Shown here piece by piece: positions 9,801 to 62,285 of a stretch of DNA of 64,000 bases. Origin of the DNA: Eledone cirrhosa (Eukaryota). Made by a program: the position numbers and the translations under genes. The stretch lies in contig OZ024743.1 of NCBI GenBank assembly GCA_964016885.1, positions 22,010,001 through 22,074,000 on the forward strand, in the 5' to 3' direction. Numbering within the stretch: position 1 is the stretch's first letter; every line of letters starts with the position of its first letter. The notes below the pieces were generated by a model, which was given only the letters and a program-made list of their open reading frames with translations, did not search any database and was not told the origin of the DNA.

Positions 9801-10202
9801 TGGTTTTCATTTTTAAACATAAGGACATCAATTTAGAAGAGGATAAGTTAATTAACTTAACGCAGCATATAACAGGTATTTATAGTTGTGATCCTTGAAG
9901 TATGAAAAGCAAACTCAGCTCCAGTTTGATTTGAACTCAAAACTTATTAGAATAAAATCTATATACTGTCAGGCAACTGTTTTACTGTTTCAGATACACA
10001 CCTGGATTTCTCATTATAAATGTACTGACCCTGAGAAAAGGTCTTGAAAATGCACTTTGTTTCACTGATCCACTTGTGAACAAGTACATTGTTGAGCTGT
10101 GATGGGATTATGATGTAATTGTAATTCATCAGTGAATATATATATATGTTGTGTGAGTGTGAGTGTGTGTTTATACATACATACATACATATATACATAC
10201 AA

Positions 10203-28696: not shown

Positions 28697-28750
<54 letters not shown>

Positions 28751-28836
28751 AAAGTTATATTTAAATTGTTGGGTTAACAACGAGTAAATATTTATAACTG
28801 ATATAAAAGCACTCAACAAGTATTTGGAGTATATTT

Positions 28837-29242
28837 ATGATATTAAATAAATGGAAACTATATTTATAAAACCATATTTATTTCGTTATATATATTTCAG
28901 GGATATCATATTAACAATATGTTATGCCATCTTCAGACAAAATACAATATAAACAGTCTTATAAATAAATAGATACGACATACCTTTCAATCACCTTGCA
29001 TTTGTGAGGTTGATTTGGCAGTAAAAAATATTGTGGACAGTTGTAAAAAGAAAGAGATAAAGAGAGAAAGAAAGAGAAACGAAGAAAAAGAAGAAATGTA
29101 TGTGACTAAATAGAGGAATATAGAAAGATAGATAAAGAGAAGAACTTCATGTAAAGAAACAGAGAGAAATATATAGAGAGAGAGGAAAAAAGAAAGAGAT
29201 AGATAGAGATAGATAGAGAAATTAGGAAGTTGAGTATCGGTT
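28837..29242 (-). repeat. Inverted 5' pseudo-LTR of PLE 1
   Basis: Reverse complement of 32548-32953; I spotted only two mismatches by eye. Confidence 0.95.
28879..28944 (-). ncRNA. Minimal type I hammerhead ribozyme in the inverted pLTR
   Basis: Reverse complement of 32846-32911. Confidence 0.8.
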
Positions 29243-29338
29243 ATAAATATTTACTCGTTGTTAACCCAACAATTTAAATATAACTTTCCATGTATCTTGC
29301 TCCAATACTGTTGAGCGCTTTATACTATAACTGAAAAA

Positions 29339-31552
29339 ATGGAATTCTTTAAGATTACTTCCTCTTTAAAAGACATACCTCTACCTAGAAACAAAGACTT
29401 TATAAAACAATTAATAGATAAATCTGACTCTTTTATAAGGAGAATCAGGTGGCGAGCATTCCACTTTGATAAATCTAATATAAATGAAAATGTCTCGGAC
29501 TTAAACAAAGTTTTCAAATCCAAAAGAAATCCACCCCCCAACAAACTTTTATCTGACTTTGAAAACGATATAATTTCTATCATACAAGGAGTCAAATTTA
29601 AGAGAAACTTCAAAGGCCAGGAATATCTGAAAGGCATTAGGGATAATATTGTGAACTTGGAGAAAACTGAGAAGATCTTGGTAAAATCTGACAAGACCAA
29701 CAACCTCTATGGAGTGCAGAAAGACATGTATAATGGCCTCATACTAAAAGAACTGAGGAAAAAGTACAAGGTAGCAGATAAGGCCGAGCTAGAGAAATTG
29801 AATGTTGAGGCATCTTGTATAATGCACGAGTTGGAAATCGAGAACAGAACACAACCTTTCGTGCCCAGGAAACCGAAGATCAATATGAAAGATCATAAGA
29901 GAAATTTCGAGAATGACTTGCCAGTCAGATTGATTGCACCATCAAAATCGGACCTGGGTAAACTAAGCAAAAACATTCTTGACAGGGTGATACAGCAAAT
30001 TAAAAACTTGAGTTGTTTACCTAACCTGAGCTTGTGGAAGGGAACTGGTGAGGTTGTTGAGTGGTTTAAGCAAATTAAATATAACAATAATAATAAGTTT
30101 ATTCAACTTGATATTGCTAACTATTATTCTTCCATTACCCCTAATCTACTAAATAAGGCACTAAATTACGCATTCAAACATACAGACCTAACTAGCAATG
30201 AAATGCACATTATATTATCGGCTAGGAAAACATTGATAGAATTTAATGACCAACTATGGACCCGAGCAGATAGAGATAACAATTTTGACATTACTATGGG
30301 ATCATCCGACTCAGCTCAGGTAACTGACCTTGTGGGCTTATTTTTAATCAATTCGCTGCATAGGAAAACACCTGGTACTACCGGAGGTTTATATAGAGAT
30401 GACATGCTTTTACTTATTGATAATAATAACTCTGAACTAAATAGAAAAAGAAAACAAATTACACAATTTTTTAATCACTTTAATCTAAAAATAGAAATTG
30501 AGAATAACCATAGAATAGTCAACTTCCTAGATATAACATTAAATCTCAACACATGTCTTCACTATCCATTTCACAAGTTGAATGAAAACTTAAACTATGT
30601 CAGCTTTAACTCTAACCACCCCAAATCTGTTAAAAATACTATAGTAAACTCTGTTCAATCACGTATCTCTAGAATCTCATCTAATAAAAAGATTTTCGAC
30701 GAAAAAGCCCATTATTACAATGAAGCGTTAGCTAGAGCAGGATATAGTGATAAAATTATGTACATAGATAATGATAAACAAATTAAACAAAATAACAACT
30801 ATTTTAATTATGGCCACAACCTTAACAACTATAATAGAAAGCATTACAATAATTCCAAAAGCCATAAAAGAAATAGAACTAGGAATATAATATGGTTTGC
30901 CCCCCCTTTCTCACTAAACATTAAAACCCACATTGCTAAACTATTTTTTAAAGCTCTCGATAATCGCTTCCCTAGAACACATAGGTATCACTCAATTTTC
31001 AATAGACATACTATAAAACTAACCTACTCATCCACCAAAAATTTAGCGCAAAATATTAATAGAATAAATAACAGGAACTTAAAACCTAGCGATAATACCA
31101 TAAATAATATCCAAGTTAACAAATGTAACTGTAGAGATAGATCTAAATGTCCGTTAAATAACAACTGCTTAGTTAAAAATATAATATACAACTGTAATGT
31201 TAAAACGGACATTAATTCTTTTAACTACGTTGGTTCTACATCGACGGAATTTAAACTTCGCTATAACAACCACAGGAATTCTTTCACAGATCCATCCAAA
31301 AAATCTTCAACAGCACTATCAGGCGTACTCTGGCAACTTAGGCATGATAACGTTAGATATTCGACGACTTGGAATATAGTTTCAAGGGGGATTCCTTTTA
31401 ATTCATCCTCTGAGACATGTGACCTCTGTGCGGAGGAGATATTCTTTATACTAAAATCTAAAAATTCCCTTAATCTACGGACAAATTTATTCAGTTGCTG
31501 CAGACATAGATTGAACTCAACGTTTAAATATAAATTTAAATTTAAAATGTAG
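29339..31552 (+). CDS. PLE reverse transcriptase + GIY-YIG endonuclease (737 aa)
   Basis: KSDKT (DKG-equivalent), QLDIANYY, ITMGS, YRDD, NFLDITL; linker CNCRDRSKCPLNNNC; NIIY...YVGST; C-terminal CDLC...CRH. Confidence 0.95.
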   Translation: MEFFKITSSLKDIPLPRNKDFIKQLIDKSDSFIRRIRWRAFHFDKSNINENVSDLNKVFKSKRNPPPNKLLSDFENDIISIIQGVKFKRNFKGQEYLKGIRDNIVNLEKTEKILVKSDKTNNLYGVQKDMYNGLILKELRKKYKVADKAELEKLNVEASCIMHELEIENRTQPFVPRKPKINMKDHKRNFENDLPVRLIAPSKSDLGKLSKNILDRVIQQIKNLSCLPNLSLWKGTGEVVEWFKQIKYNNNNKFIQLDIANYYSSITPNLLNKALNYAFKHTDLTSNEMHIILSARKTLIEFNDQLWTRADRDNNFDITMGSSDSAQVTDLVGLFLINSLHRKTPGTTGGLYRDDMLLLIDNNNSELNRKRKQITQFFNHFNLKIEIENNHRIVNFLDITLNLNTCLHYPFHKLNENLNYVSFNSNHPKSVKNTIVNSVQSRISRISSNKKIFDEKAHYYNEALARAGYSDKIMYIDNDKQIKQNNNYFNYGHNLNNYNRKHYNNSKSHKRNRTRNIIWFAPPFSLNIKTHIAKLFFKALDNRFPRTHRYHSIFNRHTIKLTYSSTKNLAQNINRINNRNLKPSDNTINNIQVNKCNCRDRSKCPLNNNCLVKNIIYNCNVKTDINSFNYVGSTSTEFKLRYNNHRNSFTDPSKKSSTALSGVLWQLRHDNVRYSTTWNIVSRGIPFNSSSETCDLCAEEIFFILKSKNSLNLRTNLFSCCRHRLNSTFKYKFKFKM

Positions 31553-32547
31553 TTATGTTTGTTTTGATTTGATTTGTAATTATTTATGAAACTAGCCGAT
31601 AAATCTTTCGATTTCTTCTTTTTATTAAAACATTCTTTTTATTAAAACATTCTTCATGAATAATTAAACTACCCTAATAGCTGATGCTCCAAATATATCG
31701 AATTAAATTTTAAACTAGATAAACTTCTATATTATATATAAGAACATATGTAGACCAAATGGGTATCCTAAACTTTTGGAATGATTTCTGCTAGACAGGA
31801 TTTGGTAAACAATTTTTGTTTTATCTGTTTCGACTCTGATGCTTATGATGATCTTGGCAATATATTGTCAATTAACCTTGAAAGGCTGATCTCTGTGTTT
31901 TATTTGTATTATTTTTTAATATTTTTTAATATTTTGTAATATTTTTATTTTTAATATTAAATGTTTTAGTTTTCTGTTTATTTATTTATTTTCTTGTCTC
32001 TGATATTTTTATTTTTATTTTTATTTTTATTTATATTTATTTTTATTAATATATTTAAATCTGTTCTCTATTTCTGCTTGATCGAAAATCATGTAGAATA
32101 AAGACAAGAATAGTATTGTTAAAATTAATATAGACTCTATTTATATGTGTATATATACGCACATATATGTATACTTGAATTTTTATAGCACAATGAGAAT
32201 GTTTTCGTGTGAATTGGGAGTTTGTTTATAATTATGATATAAACATATGAATTTTTAAAAACTAGACATAAGATCATTACTTCTCACACATTATAGATAC
32301 ATGCCTCATTCATGAATACTGGTACTTACATTATAGTGCCTGTTTTATACGAACTAATATTTTCTACGGATAAAACATAGCGGTTTTAAATTCTGCATCG
32401 TTTATGTCTGGTTATGTTTCATTTTCTCTTTTTCATTTTCTCTTTTTTCTCTCTATATAACGGCTATTTTCTCTCTTAACTACATACATCTCTCTTTACA
32501 TTAATACTAGAGCTAAATATATAAATAAATAAATAAATAAATATATC

Positions 32548-32948
32548 AACCGATACTCAACTTCCTAATTTCTCTATCTATCTCTATCTATCTCTTTCTT
32601 TTTTCCTCTCTCTATATATATTTCTCTCTGTTTCTTTACATGAAGTTCTTCTCTTTATCTATCTTTCTATATCCCTCTATTTAGTCACATACATTTCTTC
32701 TTTTTCTTCGTTTCTCTTTCTTTCTCTCTTTATCTCTTTCTTTTTACAACTGTCCACAATATTTTTTACTGCCAAATCAACCTCACAAATGCAAGGTAAT
32801 TGAAAGGTATGTCGTATCTATTTATTTATAAGACTGTTTATATTGTATTTTGTCTGAAGATGGCATAACATATTGTTAATATGATATCCCTGAAATATAT
32901 ATAACGAAATAAATATGGTTTTATAAATATAGTTTCCATTTATTTAAT

Positions 32949-32953
<5 letters not shown>
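32548..32953 (+). repeat. 3' pseudo-LTR of PLE 1
   Basis: Matches 28837-29242 inverted; ends at (TA)n. Confidence 0.95.
32846..32911 (+). ncRNA. Minimal type I hammerhead ribozyme; predicted cleavage after 32903
   Basis: Stem I UAUUUUGU/ACGAAAUA, CUGAAGA, stem II with a CAUAUU/AAUAUG hairpin, GAAA, palindromic stem III AUAUAUAU, AUA site. Confidence 0.8.
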
Positions 32954-33032
<79 letters not shown>

Positions 33033-38695: not shown

Positions 38696-38758
38696 GTGAT
38701 AATGACAATAATAATTAGGGAACAAAGAATCAGTGTTGCATCATATACATATTTAATA

Positions 38759-38849
38759 ACATATTACATATGTTTCACTGCAGATCAGCTTGAGGAATGA
38801 TTGATTATGTTCATTCCTGACTCAGGAATTGAAAGCTCCTCAGATATGT
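38759..38849 (-). ncRNA. Hammerhead ribozyme motif with a 60-nt stem II
   Basis: ACAUAU-CUGAGGA-[60 nt]-GAAA-CAUAUG-UA-AUAUGU; perfect 6-bp stem I, palindromic ACAUAUGU. Confidence 0.75.
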
Positions 38850-38980
38850 GTTCTTACATGTAGACTCCCATCCAAATGTTGCTGAATTAGTAGACACCCG
38901 ATTTACTATTTTGGATTGCCACAAACATTGTTAGAAGAATTTGTATGCTGGGTGTAACTATTTTACTTATATAACTTTAT

Positions 38981-39025
<45 letters not shown>

Positions 39026-39865: not shown

Positions 39866-41428
39866 ATATAACATCTTTTATTTCATTTCCACTCCTGAAA
39901 ATTGGTCTAGCTAAAGAAACAAAAATAAAAAATAGATAAATATAAAAACAATTAAACATATAAATCAATCAAACTGTGTGAAATAGTCTAGAATTTCACT
40001 TGCAGGATTCAGTTTGAGTAGAAATTTCACAGATAAAATTACAATGCTGCTCCATATCTTTTGGATGTTTTATTCCTTAGTATTTGAAAGACCTGAAGAA
40101 CATCAGTTTATTTAGAGTGTTTAGAATACTAATTAATTATTGCTAGGTTCTAAGTTAGACCCTTCATGTATGTAAGCATTGCAGAGTAGACATAAAGTCT
40201 CTCAGTAAATATAGCCAAACGTGTAGGACATCTTTTTGGTTCCTCGTTGAGTCTCTTTGCTTCACTCAATCTTCAAACCTGGGAATTTTGAAATGCAGTC
40301 AATCTACTGACATCAATAGATACAGTGAATGGTGAACTGGTGAAATCCTTAGAGTGTTGTCAAACATGATAATAACTTGGTTCATTACATTCTGACTTCA
40401 AATCCTGCTGTGGCCTTCTGAAGTGGTAGACATAATCCACTTGGTCCTTGGCTTCCTTTCAGAGAGTCTACTCTATTTTAATCATTTTAGCTATATTTCT
40501 GGTCTAAGAATATATAATTGCTTCACTCTAACCAGTCTCAAAGCCACTAAAGAGGAGTATGGGCACTGAGCTATTTCTTACTAAACAATATATATATTGT
40601 TATGCTTTGGGAGGGTCATGTTTTCAGATAAAGAATCTTGCTAAACAAATTCAGAAACGAAATATATATATATATATATATAAGATTGAACAAGGAAAAT
40701 AAATAAGACATGGTTTAGTACTTAGTTAATCCATTGTTTTACAATCATTTCATAAGGCAAAATAAACTAAGATATTATTGATATATTGACTAATCGATGA
40801 CAGTTATGCAGCTCTATAGCAGTAGCTTCAACAAAATACATCCATTCTACTATTCATCCTCAGAAACATATATATCTGATTATGTAGATTTTGATTACTA
40901 AACAAGTTTGCTTTGCTTCGATTGAATATTCCTATCTACAATACATTGAGTTCTAATAGGGTCATAAGTCCTACCTTAATTGGATGGAATATTAATGTAT
41001 CATGATCATTATATATATATATACACACACACACAAACACACACACACATTCATATATACAACCCGTGCTAGCGTGGAAGATGGACGTTAAACAAAGATG
41101 ATGATGATGATGATGATACATAGCATGATCCATATCTTAGATATTTGGCTAGTTTTATTGGTTTATATATATAGTAATAAATAGCTAGGCAGATGAAGAA
41201 ACAGATAGATACTTAGATGGCAAACTAGATCGATAGATAGAACATATATATATATATATATACACAGTGTGTTCACATTTCACATGAATTCGTTTTAACA
41301 GGTCTTGAAAAAATATTATTAAATATTCACTTTGTGCAAATAATGCGCTATAACGCGTGTGGATTTTAATTATCAGAAATATAATATAATATTAGAATTG
41401 ACAAAGGAAATCATCAGAAATAATAATT

Positions 41429-50197: not shown

Positions 50198-51067
50198 CCT
50201 TGTTTGAATGTTAAACATAATGATACCAAAGATGTAGGAATGTTACCCTGGAGTTGTTTAATAGTCCCTAATATTTCAGGACAAAATCCCTTCATCACAA
50301 GCACAAGAAAAACATAAATATTCTACTCTGAACCAGTTTCCTGCAGGAGTGGGGATAAGTCATGCACCAGAAGAAACAGCAGCAGCATCTTCATGTGAGT
50401 GGAAGGGGAAAAGGAGAGGAGCACGATGAGGATTTGATGTGAGTGGTTGTGTCTGTGAACCTGTGGAAACATGGGATTTCATGACAGGTTTCTGATATTT
50501 AACAAAATTGAAATACAGAGTCTATTATGATGATGTAAGGCGTGTAAATGAAAGCATAAACAATATATTTATGAGTAATAAACATATAAATCTTTAATTG
50601 CTACTGCCATTATGATGATCAAATTGATCAATTTCATTGTTATTCTTAACTCATGAATGTTTGGTCATGTTTCATTCCCACGATGCTAAATGTAAGTAGC
50701 AGAACTTATTAAAATATAAACAATCTGAGTTGAGGTTTATAATGTGGTAACATTTTAAGGACTGATATTGTTTTTCTGGAGCACCAACACAGGTTTTAAA
50801 TGCAATACTAGCCTTGCATATAGGTAATGATGCTTTTTAATCTTTGAGGGGAAATTTACTATCAAGATGCTAAAAACTGAAACATATACCACAATTCGTG
50901 TTGTCTGATACTCTCTCAATTCCAGAAAATCACCACCATAAAGGATAGCCATCTTATTTATTGGTCCAAGAGAATGAAAAGAAAAGTTGATGATAATGGG
51001 AAACAAGAAAGCCAGAATTAATAATTCAAGATTCTAACAAACCTTTCTATTTGTATATGTATATGTG

Positions 51068-51108
<41 letters not shown>

Positions 51109-51192
51109 GTGTATGTGTGTGTGTATGTGTATATATATATATATATATCACAGAAAAAAGAGAATCAGTGTTGTGATGAAAGGAATTTATTG

Positions 51193-51287
51193 GACATATT
51201 ACAATTGTTTCTCGGGCGACCAACTCGAGACACGATCGATATGGTGATCAAACCTGACTCTGAAATCGCATGGTCGTCAGATACGTC
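51193..51287 (-). ncRNA. Hammerhead ribozyme motif with a 62-nt stem II, inside an inverted-repeat unit (51145-51356)
   Basis: GACGUAU-CUGACGA-[62 nt]-GAAA-CAAUUG-UA-AUAUGUC, then AAUAAA. Confidence 0.72.
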
Positions 51288-51710
51288 TCGATTCTACAAA
51301 GCAGATTTTCCTATTTCCTAATTGTCGCAACACTGATTCTCTTTCTTCTGTGATATCATACTCTGCTCTATGAGGGCATTGAGTGCTCATACAGCCTACC
51401 GCATACGGACGCTTTAAGCATCCAACACCAATTATATATATATATATATACTGAAAGATAAGTAGCTCTGTTTCAGTACTAATTTGTGAAGAACTGTCCA
51501 ACATTTGCTAACAGAGAGGATGGATCATAAATGATGATGATAAGGATATATATACATAGGAAAATGTTAGACCCCGACGGCAGAGCTCACGCCGTTTCGA
51601 CGGCTATTTCTGGACTAGTCTAACAGTTTTCTATTACCTCCTCTACTACCCTAAGTATTGAGTACTCTGGTGCATTATGGTCCATCTGGTTCCTTACCAC
51701 ACCTCCTTCG

Positions 51711-51743
<33 letters not shown>

Positions 51744-51744
51744 G

Positions 51745-51810
51745 TCTGTCTGATGAGCGAAATAGATGTATGTTAATATTGTCTAGGGTCCTGAAACCTT
51801 TGGTAATGGA
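51745..51810 (+). ncRNA. Hammerhead ribozyme motif between (TA)n tracts
   Basis: UCUGU-CUGAUGA-stem II (UAGAU/GUCUA)-GAAA-CCUUUGG-UA-AUGGA; GUA site after 51805. Confidence 0.6.
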
Positions 51811-51842
51811 GGAGTTGAGTATTGTGTTGTTCACTTTCTAAT

Positions 51843-51898
<56 letters not shown>

Positions 51899-51905
<7 letters not shown>

Positions 51906-52120
51906 ATACTTTGGGAGGGTCATGTTGCCAATAAGATAAGAAACACATGCACCAGTTGCTTTCACTCCAATTTATTAAAATTTAAAAAAAAAATTTTTTT
52001 TAATTATAAATTTCCGGTGTGTTTCTTATTGGCAACATGAACCTCCCAAAGTATAACAATACCGGTTTCAACACACGTTTTCAGATAAAGAATCTTGCTA
52101 AACAAATTCAGAAACGAAAT
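51899..52120. mobile_element. (TA)n-flanked inverted-repeat element (MITE- or pLTR-like)
   Basis: Arms TATTGTTATACTTTGGGAGGGTCATGTTGCCAATAAG (from 51899) and its reverse complement (ending 52061); deleted copy at 40595-40663. Confidence 0.7.
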
Positions 52121-58241: not shown

Positions 58242-58279
<38 letters not shown>

Positions 58280-58318
58280 ATATTAAATAAATGGAAACTA
58301 TATTTATAAAACCATATT

Positions 58319-58382
58319 TATTTTATTATATATATTTCAAGGGTACCAAGACAACATTGGTACGCTTTCATCAGATAAAATA
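58319..58382 (-). ncRNA. Minimal type I hammerhead ribozyme (3' pLTR of PLE 2)
   Basis: UAUUUUAU-CUGAUGA-AAGCGUACCAA/UUGGUACCCUU-GAAA-UAUAUA-UA-AUAAAAUA. Confidence 0.88.
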
Positions 58383-59358
58383 CAAAGTTTGTTTCATAAA
58401 TAGAGACATACCCATGAAAATCATACCTTAAAGGTTGAAAATTCACTGGATAGTGGAAATATATTAGGGATTTTTCAAACTTATGTGTGAATATGCAAAT
58501 GAATATGTAAATAAATGAAAAACAACCGTTTATTTAAACGACTATGGAGAGAGAGAAGAAATAAGAGGAGAAGGATAAAAAATAGTGCGAGAGAGAAAGA
58601 GAGAGAAGAAAGAAACAAGAGAAGGTGAATAAAACTCATATAAAAAGTATATATCTTAATAGTACGTGTATTTACGATTATTAGTTGTTTAAAATTTGTT
58701 TATAATATAATATTTTCTGTTATAAGTCGATAAATAAATAAATACATAAATAAATAAATAAACAAATAAATAAATAGGTATATCATGTTATAAATAATTG
58801 TTCTAATGAGTTATGAGGGATATTGGTTTTGTATTTAATGTAAATAAATATTAAGTTAAATTAAATTAAATTAACTGAGTTAATAAGAATATTTATATTT
58901 ATATGATTTAAAATGGGAAGATGCGGAAAAACTCCGGTTTAATTTATGTATTCGTTAGTGTGAGACTATTTAGTCAAAATAACTATAGATGTTGAAAGAT
59001 ACATTTAGCCAGAATGGTTATAAATCTATTGAAAAATATTGAAAAAGTATTGAAAAAATATTGAAAAATTTGAGAAAATTTTTTTTAAATAAATTGTAAG
59101 AGATAAGTAATTTTTAAAGAAATAAAAATTAAAGAAATAAAAATAAGGATTTAAAAATGATTAAAATTAAAATTAAAATTAAAATTTTAAAAAAATTTAG
59201 AATTATATACGTATATATTTTATGAAACTTTAAGAAGTGGAATTATAGCAAATGTTATAGATATTATGATTTAGAGATATCATAATATATATATGAAAAC
59301 CAATTGGATGAGATTGTTATGGAAATAAGTAGAAATATTAGAAATATTATAAGTATAA

Positions 59359-61579
59359 TTATAAGTTATATATAGTTATGAATGTTGAATGCAGGCGATG
59401 TCTACAAGAATTAAATAAATTCGTTCTTAGATTAATAGAGTTTTTACTGTTAAGTATGAAAAAAATTTCCTCAACGCACGATTTGCAGAATCTAGATAAA
59501 GCTGTGTTTCGGTACGCGGGTGCTTATGAAACTGTTTCCCAAGCTAAAGAATAGTCCATATTCTTGCATTTTAAGTTCCATATCAAGTTTGAAAGAGAAG
59601 TTGAAGATTTTTGATCAAATCTTAGGAATGAGCATTTGTGTTTATTCCAGCGATTTTTAAATTCTGTAGAAGTTGCACCGACATAAATATATTATCACTG
59701 GTTTTAACTGTTTATAGACCACGTTTTTATCTAAACAGTTATTTTGTAAAGGACAGTTTGATTTAATTCTAATTACATTTTGCTGAGTTGTTGTTCGGAA
59801 TGGTACTATTATGTTGGATATTGCTATTAGTTGGATATTGCTATTTTGGTTATTTTGGTTAGGGTTTAAATTTCTATTATTAATTCTATTTATATTTTGT
59901 GCTATGTTCATAGTAGTAGAGTAGGATAGTTTTATAGTATGTCTGTTAAAGATTGAGTGGTATCTGTGGGCTTTAGGAAAACATTTATCTAGTGCTTTAA
60001 AGAATAGCTTTGCTAAAGGTGTTTTTAGGCTTAATGAGAATGGGGGTGTGTACCAAATAATATTTCTAGTTCTAGTTCTTCTGTTAGTTTTAGAGTATAA
60101 GTTAAATTTTGTATTATAATTACAATTAATAGTAGGGTTATTTACCTTATTACTGTTGTCGATATATTTAATCTTATTTATATACCCTGCTCTATTTAAA
60201 GCTTCATTATAATATTCTGCCTTATCGTCAAAAATGTTTTTATTAGCGGAGATGCGTGAAATACGTTGTTGGACAGAATTGACAATAGTGTTCTTGATAG
60301 ATCTAGGATGATTAGAGTTAAAACTTACATAGTTTAGATTCTCATTAATTTTATGGAATGGATAGTAGAGCCCTGTGTTAAGGTTTAATGTTACGTCTAA
60401 AAAGTTTACAATTTTATAGTTATTCTCTATTTCTAACTTAAGGTTTGTAGCTATTGAAAAATTGTATTATGGATTTTCTTTTCCTATTAATTTCACAATT
60501 ATTATGATTTTCAATTAAAAGCAGCATATCATCACGATATAAACCTGGTATTTTTCTATGCAGTGTATTATTAATAAATAGCCCCACAATATCCGTTATT
60601 TGCGCCGAGCCAGATGATCCCATGGTGATATCAAAATTATTTTTTCTATCGGCTCTAGTCCAGAGATGATTGTTGAATTCAATTAAAGTTTTCCGTGCAG
60701 TTAAAATGATATGCATTTCTTCGCTAGATAAATATGGATGTTTAGATGCATAGATACTTTATTAAGTAAACTAGGAGTAATAGAGGAGTAGTAGTTTGCA
60801 ATATCCAATTGAATTAATTTTTTGTTACGTTTAAATTTTATGTTATTGAACCAATCTATAACCTCGTTAGTACCGTTCCGTAATTTTAGGTAAGATATTT
60901 CTTTAAGTTGCGGTATGATTCTATCTAATATATGTTTACTAACTATGCCTAAGTCTGATTTAGATGGTGCTATAAATCTAACTGGTAGTTCTATTTCAAA
61001 GTTTCTTTTGTGGTCTTTCAGGTTAATTTTCGGTCTTCTAGGTATAAAGGGTTCGGTCCTATTTTCGATGCCTAATTTATGAATTATTTCAGAAGCTTCT
61101 CTATTTACCATTTCAAGATCTTCATTAGTTGTTATTTTGTAGTTTTTCCTTAGTTCGTTCAATATAAGGTTATTGTATTCGTCCTTTTGCATTTCATATA
61201 GATTGTTAGTTTTGTCAGATTTTACGAGGATCTTCTCAGTTTTTTCAAGATTGTCTATATTATTCTTGAGGCCTTTAAGGTATTCCTGGCCTACAAATTG
61301 GTTTTTCTTGAATTTGATGTTTTGTATAATCGATATTATTTCATTTTCAAATTCCATTAATAGTTTGTTGTTAGGTGGATTTTTCTTGGATTTGAAGATC
61401 ATATCGAAGTTGTAACTGGATTTATTTGTTTTTTCATCTGATTTTCTATGAAAATGGAAGGCACGCCATCTATGGCTTCGTATAAAGGAGTCAGATTTCT
61501 CAATGAGTTGTTTAAGATAGTCCTTATTCTTAGGTAAAGGTACATCTTTTAGAGAAGAAGAAATCCTAAAGAATTCCAT
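59359..61579 (-). pseudogene. PLE 2 RT-GIY-YIG ORF with frameshifts
   Basis: Pieces 61579-60701, 60716-60438 (YRDD) and 59911-59657 (CPLQNNC) align by eye to the 737-aa ORF; ends SCRHRLHSTF. Confidence 0.92.
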
Positions 61580-61768
61580 TATTTAGCAATCAGTTATAAT
61601 TTAAAGTGCTCAATATTAAAGGAGCTATTTATAAGTAGAAGGGGTATTAATTTGTTGGAAGTCCGACAAATATAAATGTTTATAACTGATTTAGAGCACT
61701 CAACAGTTTACTGGAGTAAATATTCAATGATATTAAGTAAATGGAAACTATATTTATAAAACCATATT

Positions 61769-61832
61769 TATTTTATTATATATATTTCAAGGGTACCAAG
61801 ACAACATTGCTACCCTTTCATCAGATAAAATA
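61769..61832 (-). ncRNA. Minimal type I hammerhead ribozyme (5' pLTR of PLE 2)
   Basis: As 58319-58382, with stem II AAGGGUAGCAA/UUGGUACCCUU. Confidence 0.88.
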
Positions 61833-62007
61833 CAAAGTTTGTTTTATAAATAGAGACATACCCATGAAAATAATACCTTATCGGTTGGAAATTCACTGGA
61901 TAGTGGAAATTTATTAGGGATTTTTCAAACTTATGTGTGAATATGCAAATGAATATGTAATTAATTGAAAAACAAACGTTTATTTCAAAAAATTAATACC
62001 TCTTCTA

Positions 62008-62065
<58 letters not shown>

Positions 62066-62073
<8 letters not shown>

Positions 62074-62285
62074 TAACAGATTAAAGTTTAAGCAAAGAAT
62101 CGCTGCTTTCACCCTTAACGGGATCTGCTGAAACTAAACAAATTAATCTGTGAACGCAGAAGTAAATATTTTGAAAAACGTGGCAACTGAAGGAAGACAG
62201 GAAGACGATACTTTGGTTTCAGAAGATCCCGTTAAGGGTGAAAGCAGCGATTCTTTGCTTAAACTTTTTATCTGTTATTTTAATA
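62066..62285. mobile_element. (TA)n-flanked element with ~70-bp inverted arms
   Basis: 62066-62134 is the reverse complement of 62216-62285 with few differences. Confidence 0.8.

Follow-up and report, generated by a model that had tools for sequence, protein, structure and literature searches.

PLE insertions typically contain an inverted truncated copy, carry a tail at one end and lie in (TA)n targets (PMC8557442; PMC3846280), and transcription start sites within the pLTR have been described for Penelope and Chlamys-3 (PMC8557442). The purified Poseidon protein cuts and extends both target strands, and its RT start sites are two internal RNA positions on either side of the tail; in that in vitro system ribozyme cleavage is not required (PMC11167929). 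Inverted-pLTR insertions and solo pLTRs are the closest described structures (Arkhipova et al. 2013, PMC3846280; Craig 2021). They share with the units reported here the head-to-head arms, the tail at one end, and the palindromes and microhomology at junctions. Solo pLTRs were ascribed there to recombination or deletion, and the accessible parts of these two accounts do not describe a 5' stop that is fixed and dominant in copies lacking the ORF. The basic reading of the locus, a PLE pLTR stub, is already known, and its anatomy is that of an ordinary PLE. Its value is as a genomic record of the way in which PLEs form inverted arms, tails and pLTRs and of the template used, in an element that is easily misfiled as a MITE or a retrozyme. 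In the papers searched, few of them from subscription journals, we found neither a fixed 5' stop in PLE stubs nor so long a stem II in Hydra-type hammerheads; the accessible text of the octopus repeat annotation counts PLEs and does not describe these units (PMC13282606).

The unit spans positions 51145-51433 (about 290 bases) of the 64,000-nt stretch of DNA analysed here (the window) and consists of two pieces of one pLTR, arranged partly head-to-head. Positions marked ref below refer to a 1378-nt reference taken in hammerhead sense from one long copy, L031. In these terms the unit begins with ref 1300 to 1132 in inverted orientation, continues with 10 nt of filler and ends with ref 1268-1378 in direct orientation. 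The tail-less inverted arm (51145..51313, minus strand, 94.7% identity to ref 1132-1300) runs from a 5' stop hot spot (51313, ref 1132) to an inner fixed end (51145, ref 1300), and both ends recur in many copies. The filler (51314..51323) is private to the window copy, junctions differing between copies. The tail-bearing arm (51324..51433, plus strand, 95.5% identity to the reference) includes a tail of about 78 nt (51357-51433, plus strand), delimited by the tail-ORF junctions of ORF-linked copies. A (TA)n/(TATG)n microsatellite (51056..51146), the likely target, flanks the unit on the left, and (TA)n at 51434..51451 flanks it on the right. The first-pass annotation had placed the unit at 51145..51356, with 32-bp arms beside (TA)n enclosing a hammerhead and AAUAAA. 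The arms (51145-51176 versus 51325-51356) are indeed complementary at 30 of 32 positions, and both the hammerhead layout and the hexamer are present. The right boundary was misplaced, as family sequence goes on for 77 nt past 51356 before (TA)n begins. Nor are the arms the ends of a fixed unit: they are a 33-nt overlap between the 169-nt inverted piece and the 110-nt direct piece, and the extent of this overlap differs from copy to copy. Folding of the 212-nt strand yields z = -7.6, mostly from the arms. No contig from three sequencing runs of one sample spans the window unit's own junction, and depth over the unit is high in these data. The same architecture recurs at dozens of other loci.

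We searched the 3.0-Gb genome with the unit and analysed the best 40 scored of at least 2652 first-look candidates. Separately, 14 of 40 scored matches span the tail-ORF junction at 85% or more. L031 itself contains an RT fragment flanked by two long inverted arms. A search with this fragment returned 20 loci, 16 of which were extended, and in 15 of the 16 RT-anchored loci the family's non-coding sequence is contiguous with an RT-endonuclease ORF. In ORF-linked loci the RT is followed by a C-terminal GIY-YIG endonuclease, and the ORF of tandem-type copies starts with an ATG 42 nt beyond the tail end (ref 1378). Every ORF copy seen is broken by stops or frameshifts, the longest stop-free stretch being 587 aa. 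Read without frame correction, 7 of 16 loci have (S)DKT in the expected position, and several loci carry a CNCRVREEC-type linker (CxCx5C) and CKLCLSE...N...CRH (CxxC..E..N..CxH). In the non-ORF sets, 132 outer ends fall on the two fixed sites, and TA runs adjoin 122 of them. The insertions have the layout of PLEs, namely a pLTR both at the 3' end and upstream of the ORF, an inverted 5' copy and a tail at one end. Judged by its motifs and by eye against the published alignment, the parent is an endonuclease-bearing PLE with Hydra-clade motifs. The option that the first-pass annotation had listed first, namely that PLE families leave solo pLTRs in inverted arrangement at (TA)n, is supported.

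Like the described Hydra-clade EN+ PLEs (Craig et al. 2021, PMC8557442; including Hydra-1_Obim), this parent combines a C-terminal GIY-YIG with DKT, CxCx5C and CxxC/CxH around E and N, as well as (TA)n targets, a pLTR hammerhead and an optional inverted 5' copy. It differs from them in length from ATG to tail end (about 4.8 kb in L086 versus generally <3 kb), in the tail (78 nt versus 30-40), in having RWR at the place of the N-terminal RWK motif, and in a stem II that encloses 62 nt, versus 3-7 bp with 3-10-nt loops in 26 Hydra rows of File S2 (PMC8557442). Four short strings of the reported family are absent from the accessible supplement text of the same paper. We considered whether L031 and L032 represent a re-mobilised composite and rejected this, their common 100 nt being ordinary 3' UTR. 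A piece of the 3' UTR of about 52 nt is tandemly amplified inside long family copies at G000:C8:42387921-42389166 and C28:39374686-39375166. Three insertions about 150 kb apart (G000:C4:204153383, 204295589, 204450530) have identical arm and flank layout and are likely a segmental repeat.

Genome searches with the tail only gave 90 loci, among which are 76 distinct insertions including that of the window, all of them tail-selected; samples were the best-scoring 30-40 matches per query and hence not random. An inverted arm was found in 47 of the 76, which is a floor because the script missed very short arms. The start of the arm is ref 1300 in 46 cases and 1305 in the remaining one; no arm starts at 1378. 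An outer end is one of two fixed sites, the tail end (1378) or a position 78 nt inside it (1300). Each inverted insertion combines one tail-bearing and one tail-less arm, and the inner junctions are variable, with a non-terminal inverted overlap of anything between a few nt and about 170 nt. In 46 insertions where arm lengths were compared, the longer arm was the tail-less one in 31 and the tail arm in 12; hence, most copies cannot have arisen by simple fold-back from the tail end. The ORF start is reached by 2 of the 76 tail-anchored insertions. The first-pass annotation was right about a population of tiny units, which far outnumber ORF copies and have non-random ends. It had also proposed that fixed ends and no linked ORF would mark a non-autonomous family; the outer ends are fixed, but linked ORFs exist and the inner junctions vary.

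The 5' side of the stubs is sharply defined. Among arms that reach ref <=1136, 40 of 53 stop at 1129-1136 and 13 pass, two of the latter belonging to ORF-bearing insertions (L155, L212); a second, smaller cluster of ends coincides with the TAG that follows (1144-1149). The 1129-1136 stop is found where an arm borders (TA)n, where it folds back and where it meets a partner arm, the last of these at many positions, and is therefore independent of any one microhomology. In ORF-bearing insertions, one of 13 unselected arms stops at the hot spot (L156/L270), and L251 passes it by 10 nt only. Stop usage differs between ORF-free and ORF-bearing insertions (P-value = 1.6e-4, on an earlier count of 1/10 for the ORF-bearing set). 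When one arm was selected to pass the site, the partners reaching it also pass (L295, L300, L273, L106). The 5' pLTRs of ORF-bearing copies end elsewhere, at 917, 660, 820, 1065, 1078 and 1122, and in L270 a 1132-ended copy is joined to ORF-start sequence. Ref 1130-1133 is a poor match to the initiator consensus. A downstream-promoter-like AGACG lies 28 nt after ref 1130 and is not kept in the sister or the neighbour family. We rejected ref 1132 as a splice acceptor, as the short copies have no common upstream exon and there is no pyrimidine tract.

With a probability of about 0.7, we interpret the stubs as short, partly inverted pLTR insertions of a Hydra-motif PLE in (TA)n, likely produced when the element's protein primes twice in the leader of its own RNA and runs off at the likely RNA start. 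By analogy with other PLEs, the PLE protein would cut both (TA)n strands, and reverse transcription would begin at two internal RNA sites (1378 and 1300), one per target strand. The cDNAs would run upstream and then be joined, often via microhomology, the joining step being a guess. In vitro, the Anolis element Poseidon (Frangieh et al. 2024, PMC11167929) likewise has tail-bounding RT start sites near the pLTR-ORF junction, one of them in an AC-rich stretch, and its targets are AT-rich; Poseidon belongs to another clade, and its start sites are inside the ORF, whereas those considered here lie 42 and 120 nt before the ATG. We read ref ~1132 as the template 5' end because the stop recurs across subgroups, ignores the partner and is rarely used on long templates. 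Ref ~1130-1133 would then be the 5' end of a putative pLTR-initiated transcript, and the stubs would be run-off copies of its leader. Long copies may derive from read-through RNA, from RNA in tandem or circular form, or from a 5'-end jump, and the L270 junction fits a jump from the RNA 5' end. In line with run-off, the neighbour family at 51557 has a comparable stop in 39 of 40 arms and an ORF-linked parent. Against it stand the poor initiator match at ref 1130-1133 and the following: an mRNA starting at the hot spot should sometimes leave ORF-bearing 5' pLTRs that end there. Since pLTRs upstream of ORFs lack the hot-spot stop, a second class of template or further jumps must be assumed. The strict pairing of one tail-bearing with one tail-less arm and the sharp 5' stop provide exact positions at which the run-off origin can be tested.

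A bolder version of the run-off origin is possible, though less likely than not. Here target-primed RT would start at the two sites in the mRNA's 5' leader and run to the cap (ref ~1132). To go on, it would have to switch to the 3' pLTR that matches, in a 'strong-stop and jump', or to a circle made by the ribozyme; the 3' pLTR would be terminally redundant up to AAUAAA. If true, thousands of stubs would be integrated failed jumps that map the RNA 5' end and both priming sites, and the scheme would explain how a PLE rebuilds its pLTRs.

One could expect units so numerous to propagate by themselves, as solo pLTRs whose internal promoter would start transcription at ref ~1132 and whose RNA the PLE protein would copy in trans, as with a SINE. 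Stubs do greatly exceed ORF copies (at least 1,000-2,650 first-look candidates for pLTR pieces versus at least 92 for the ORF start), their 5' end is sharp, several complete 1132-1378 units lie between (TA)n on both sides, and in a rotifer pLTR sequences are described as enough for trans mobilisation (PMC3846280). We compared short and long arms on a weakly supported tree of 84 arms (165 columns; 42 of the arms short). The short arms never form a single group in 200 bootstrap trees: 20 changes are needed, the starred branches force at least 5, and short arms are interleaved with long or ORF-linked arms in at least 4 subgroups, each of which has such members, which argues against a separate lineage. 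They are more clustered than shuffled labels (20 changes versus 28.3), that is, beyond chance; sampling explains part of this clustering, and some re-copying of stubs would also give it. Also against self-propagation, each insertion makes its junctions anew, and the only PLE tested in vitro needed, in the published account, template sequence downstream in the ORF (PMC11167929), which is absent from stubs. On balance, we consider an independent family unlikely.

Slightly less probable still is that the stubs are ordinary 5'-truncated PLE copies and that 1132 marks a polymerase stall, or a preferred cut or annealing site, on a long template. A UAG lies beside structure at this position, TA matches the target, the next TAG has the smaller cluster of ends mentioned above, and a TAG is found at the stop in both families studied. 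However, TA sites at 1122, 1162 and 1256 are not hot spots. Moreover, 12 of the 13 arms in ORF-bearing insertions pass the site, as do long-arm partners, and a stall intrinsic to the template predicts otherwise.

The first-pass annotation had preferred an undescribed non-autonomous retrozyme-like family, a proposal that largely fails in view of the ORF-linked parents, the variable inner junctions, the missing hammerhead tandems and the interleaving of short copies. We give very little weight to reading the unit as a non-LTR retrozyme, with hammerhead monomers in tandem and a circular RNA, or as a DNA element of the MITE type that ends in 32-bp inverted repeats: the type I hammerhead with palindromic stem III, the short inverted repeats and the small size would suit them, but no two hammerheads lie on the same strand within 700 nt in 240 loci, and without tandem arrays the element is not a retrozyme, while the inverted overlap is neither terminal nor fixed as terminal inverted repeats would be. 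The published animal non-LTR retrozymes (bioRxiv 10.64898/2026.07.22.740005) do share with our units a type I hammerhead, a PLE pLTR origin and an ORF-free unit; as described there, they are tandem hammerhead monomers, an arrangement not seen in the reported family. Nor are ends clearly enriched at the cleavage site: 9 of 95 arms end at 1243-1249 (4.3 expected, P-value = 0.03), fewer than in several other 7-nt windows. In our reading, stub ends are not defined by the hammerhead.

The predicted type I hammerhead occupies 51193..51287 on the minus strand, with a 7-bp stem I (51287-51281/51199-51193), the core CUGACGA (51280-51274), GAAA (51211-51208), a palindromic stem III ACAAUUGU and a GUA triplet with predicted cleavage after 51200. 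The window copy thus has three stems and a canonical core of the form CUGANGA / GAAA / NUH. Its stem II region (51212..51273, minus strand, 62 nt) is predicted from single-sequence folds and pair counts to form an interrupted rod of about 22 bp, partly decayed in this copy, and the active fold lies 2.6 kcal/mol above the predicted minimum. An AAUAAA hexamer, a possible polyadenylation signal, stands just past stem I (51186..51191, minus strand); it is present in 105 of 122 copies of the main family and in 14 of 20 of the sister family, which has ATTAAA there. Cores of 99 distinct copies include 54 with U4C and 23 canonical ones; in vitro, U4C reportedly reduces activity to a considerable degree (PMC3088659). 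We counted pairs in 34 copies of the main family and the ~70% identical sister family (window 38714), using a structure named by hand from single-sequence folds. In this structure 90% of cells are paired, versus 83.8% in shuffles and 28-41% in slid controls, with two of five measures no better than shuffles (249/500 and 52/500). In stem II, both sides have changed in 6 of 22 pairs, the double changes being mostly one split between the two families. Given these 34 copies, RNAalifold predicted 4 pairs (-0.6 kcal/mol) and missed the hammerhead fold. An Rfam scan of the window at E<=1 gave 44 matches, with zero hammerheads among them and nearly all of the 44 being microRNA matches driven by microsatellites.

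PLE hammerheads with a small palindromic helix III are reported to cleave weakly, as dimers (PMC4209133). Those described by Cervera and de la Pena (2014, PMC4209133) resemble ours in being type I, in the bulged base after A9, in the small palindromic helix III suited to dimers, and in occurring mostly as single or opposite-strand copies from truncated PLEs. They differ in a helix II of 6-8 bp, far exceeded here, and in the G10.1-C11.1 pair, which is absent from our family, where U4C is found in more than half of the cores. We regard the hammerhead as a passenger part of the pLTR, with cleavage predicted to be weak and confined to dimers. Stem II regions of 36-105 nt, missed here by Rfam, suggest that counts of ribozyme motifs from standard searches are too low in genomes of this kind. 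A more distant, ORF-linked relative (L257-L269) has the same tail-ORF layout; its hammerhead cores are degenerate, more so than those of the main family, and its stem I and III sequences are kept, which suggests that a hammerhead fold may outlast catalysis.

The window holds further units of this kind. A second stub family (51557-51711), next to the reported unit and absent from the list in the first-pass annotation, has an inverted tail-less arm, a tail of about 80 nt and (TA)n, and no canonical hammerhead core; its 39 stopping arms end within 8 nt of one initiator-like start. Its summed contig depth is about 40x that of the reported unit, which is not a copy number, and its endonuclease-bearing parent L240 (G000:C3:299833500-299838800) ends in the same pLTR. 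The sister pLTR family (38714-38985), whose ~70% identity to the main family applies over the hammerhead, has a canonical core and the two-end anatomy of the reported unit; its tail-less end is often followed by (ATT)n, and at least 2436 first-look candidates were found. Four more units are flanked by (TA)n: 40716-40885 (minus strand), with hammerhead core halves and stems I and III around a 105-nt stem II region; 51742-51846, with a hammerhead core around 36 nt; 51899-52120, inverted and tailed; and 62066-62283, inverted, with a CAGAAGA core variant and a short stem II. Pfam matched no family to the window's three PLE ORF pieces. A broken Hydra-type ORF at 59657-61582 (piece 59657-61990, hammerhead core at 61824) is related to the element at 29 kb, and Hydra-type pieces at 58274-58540 and 9950-10140 have hammerhead cores at 58374 and 10132 (62-nt spacer). 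The 29-kb element (28743-32960) is a Hydra-type PLE that looks young; its ORF, open over 745 aa (29315-31552), lies between inverted arms of 413 nt with 99% complementarity, and the element has a shorter-stem hammerhead core at 32854.
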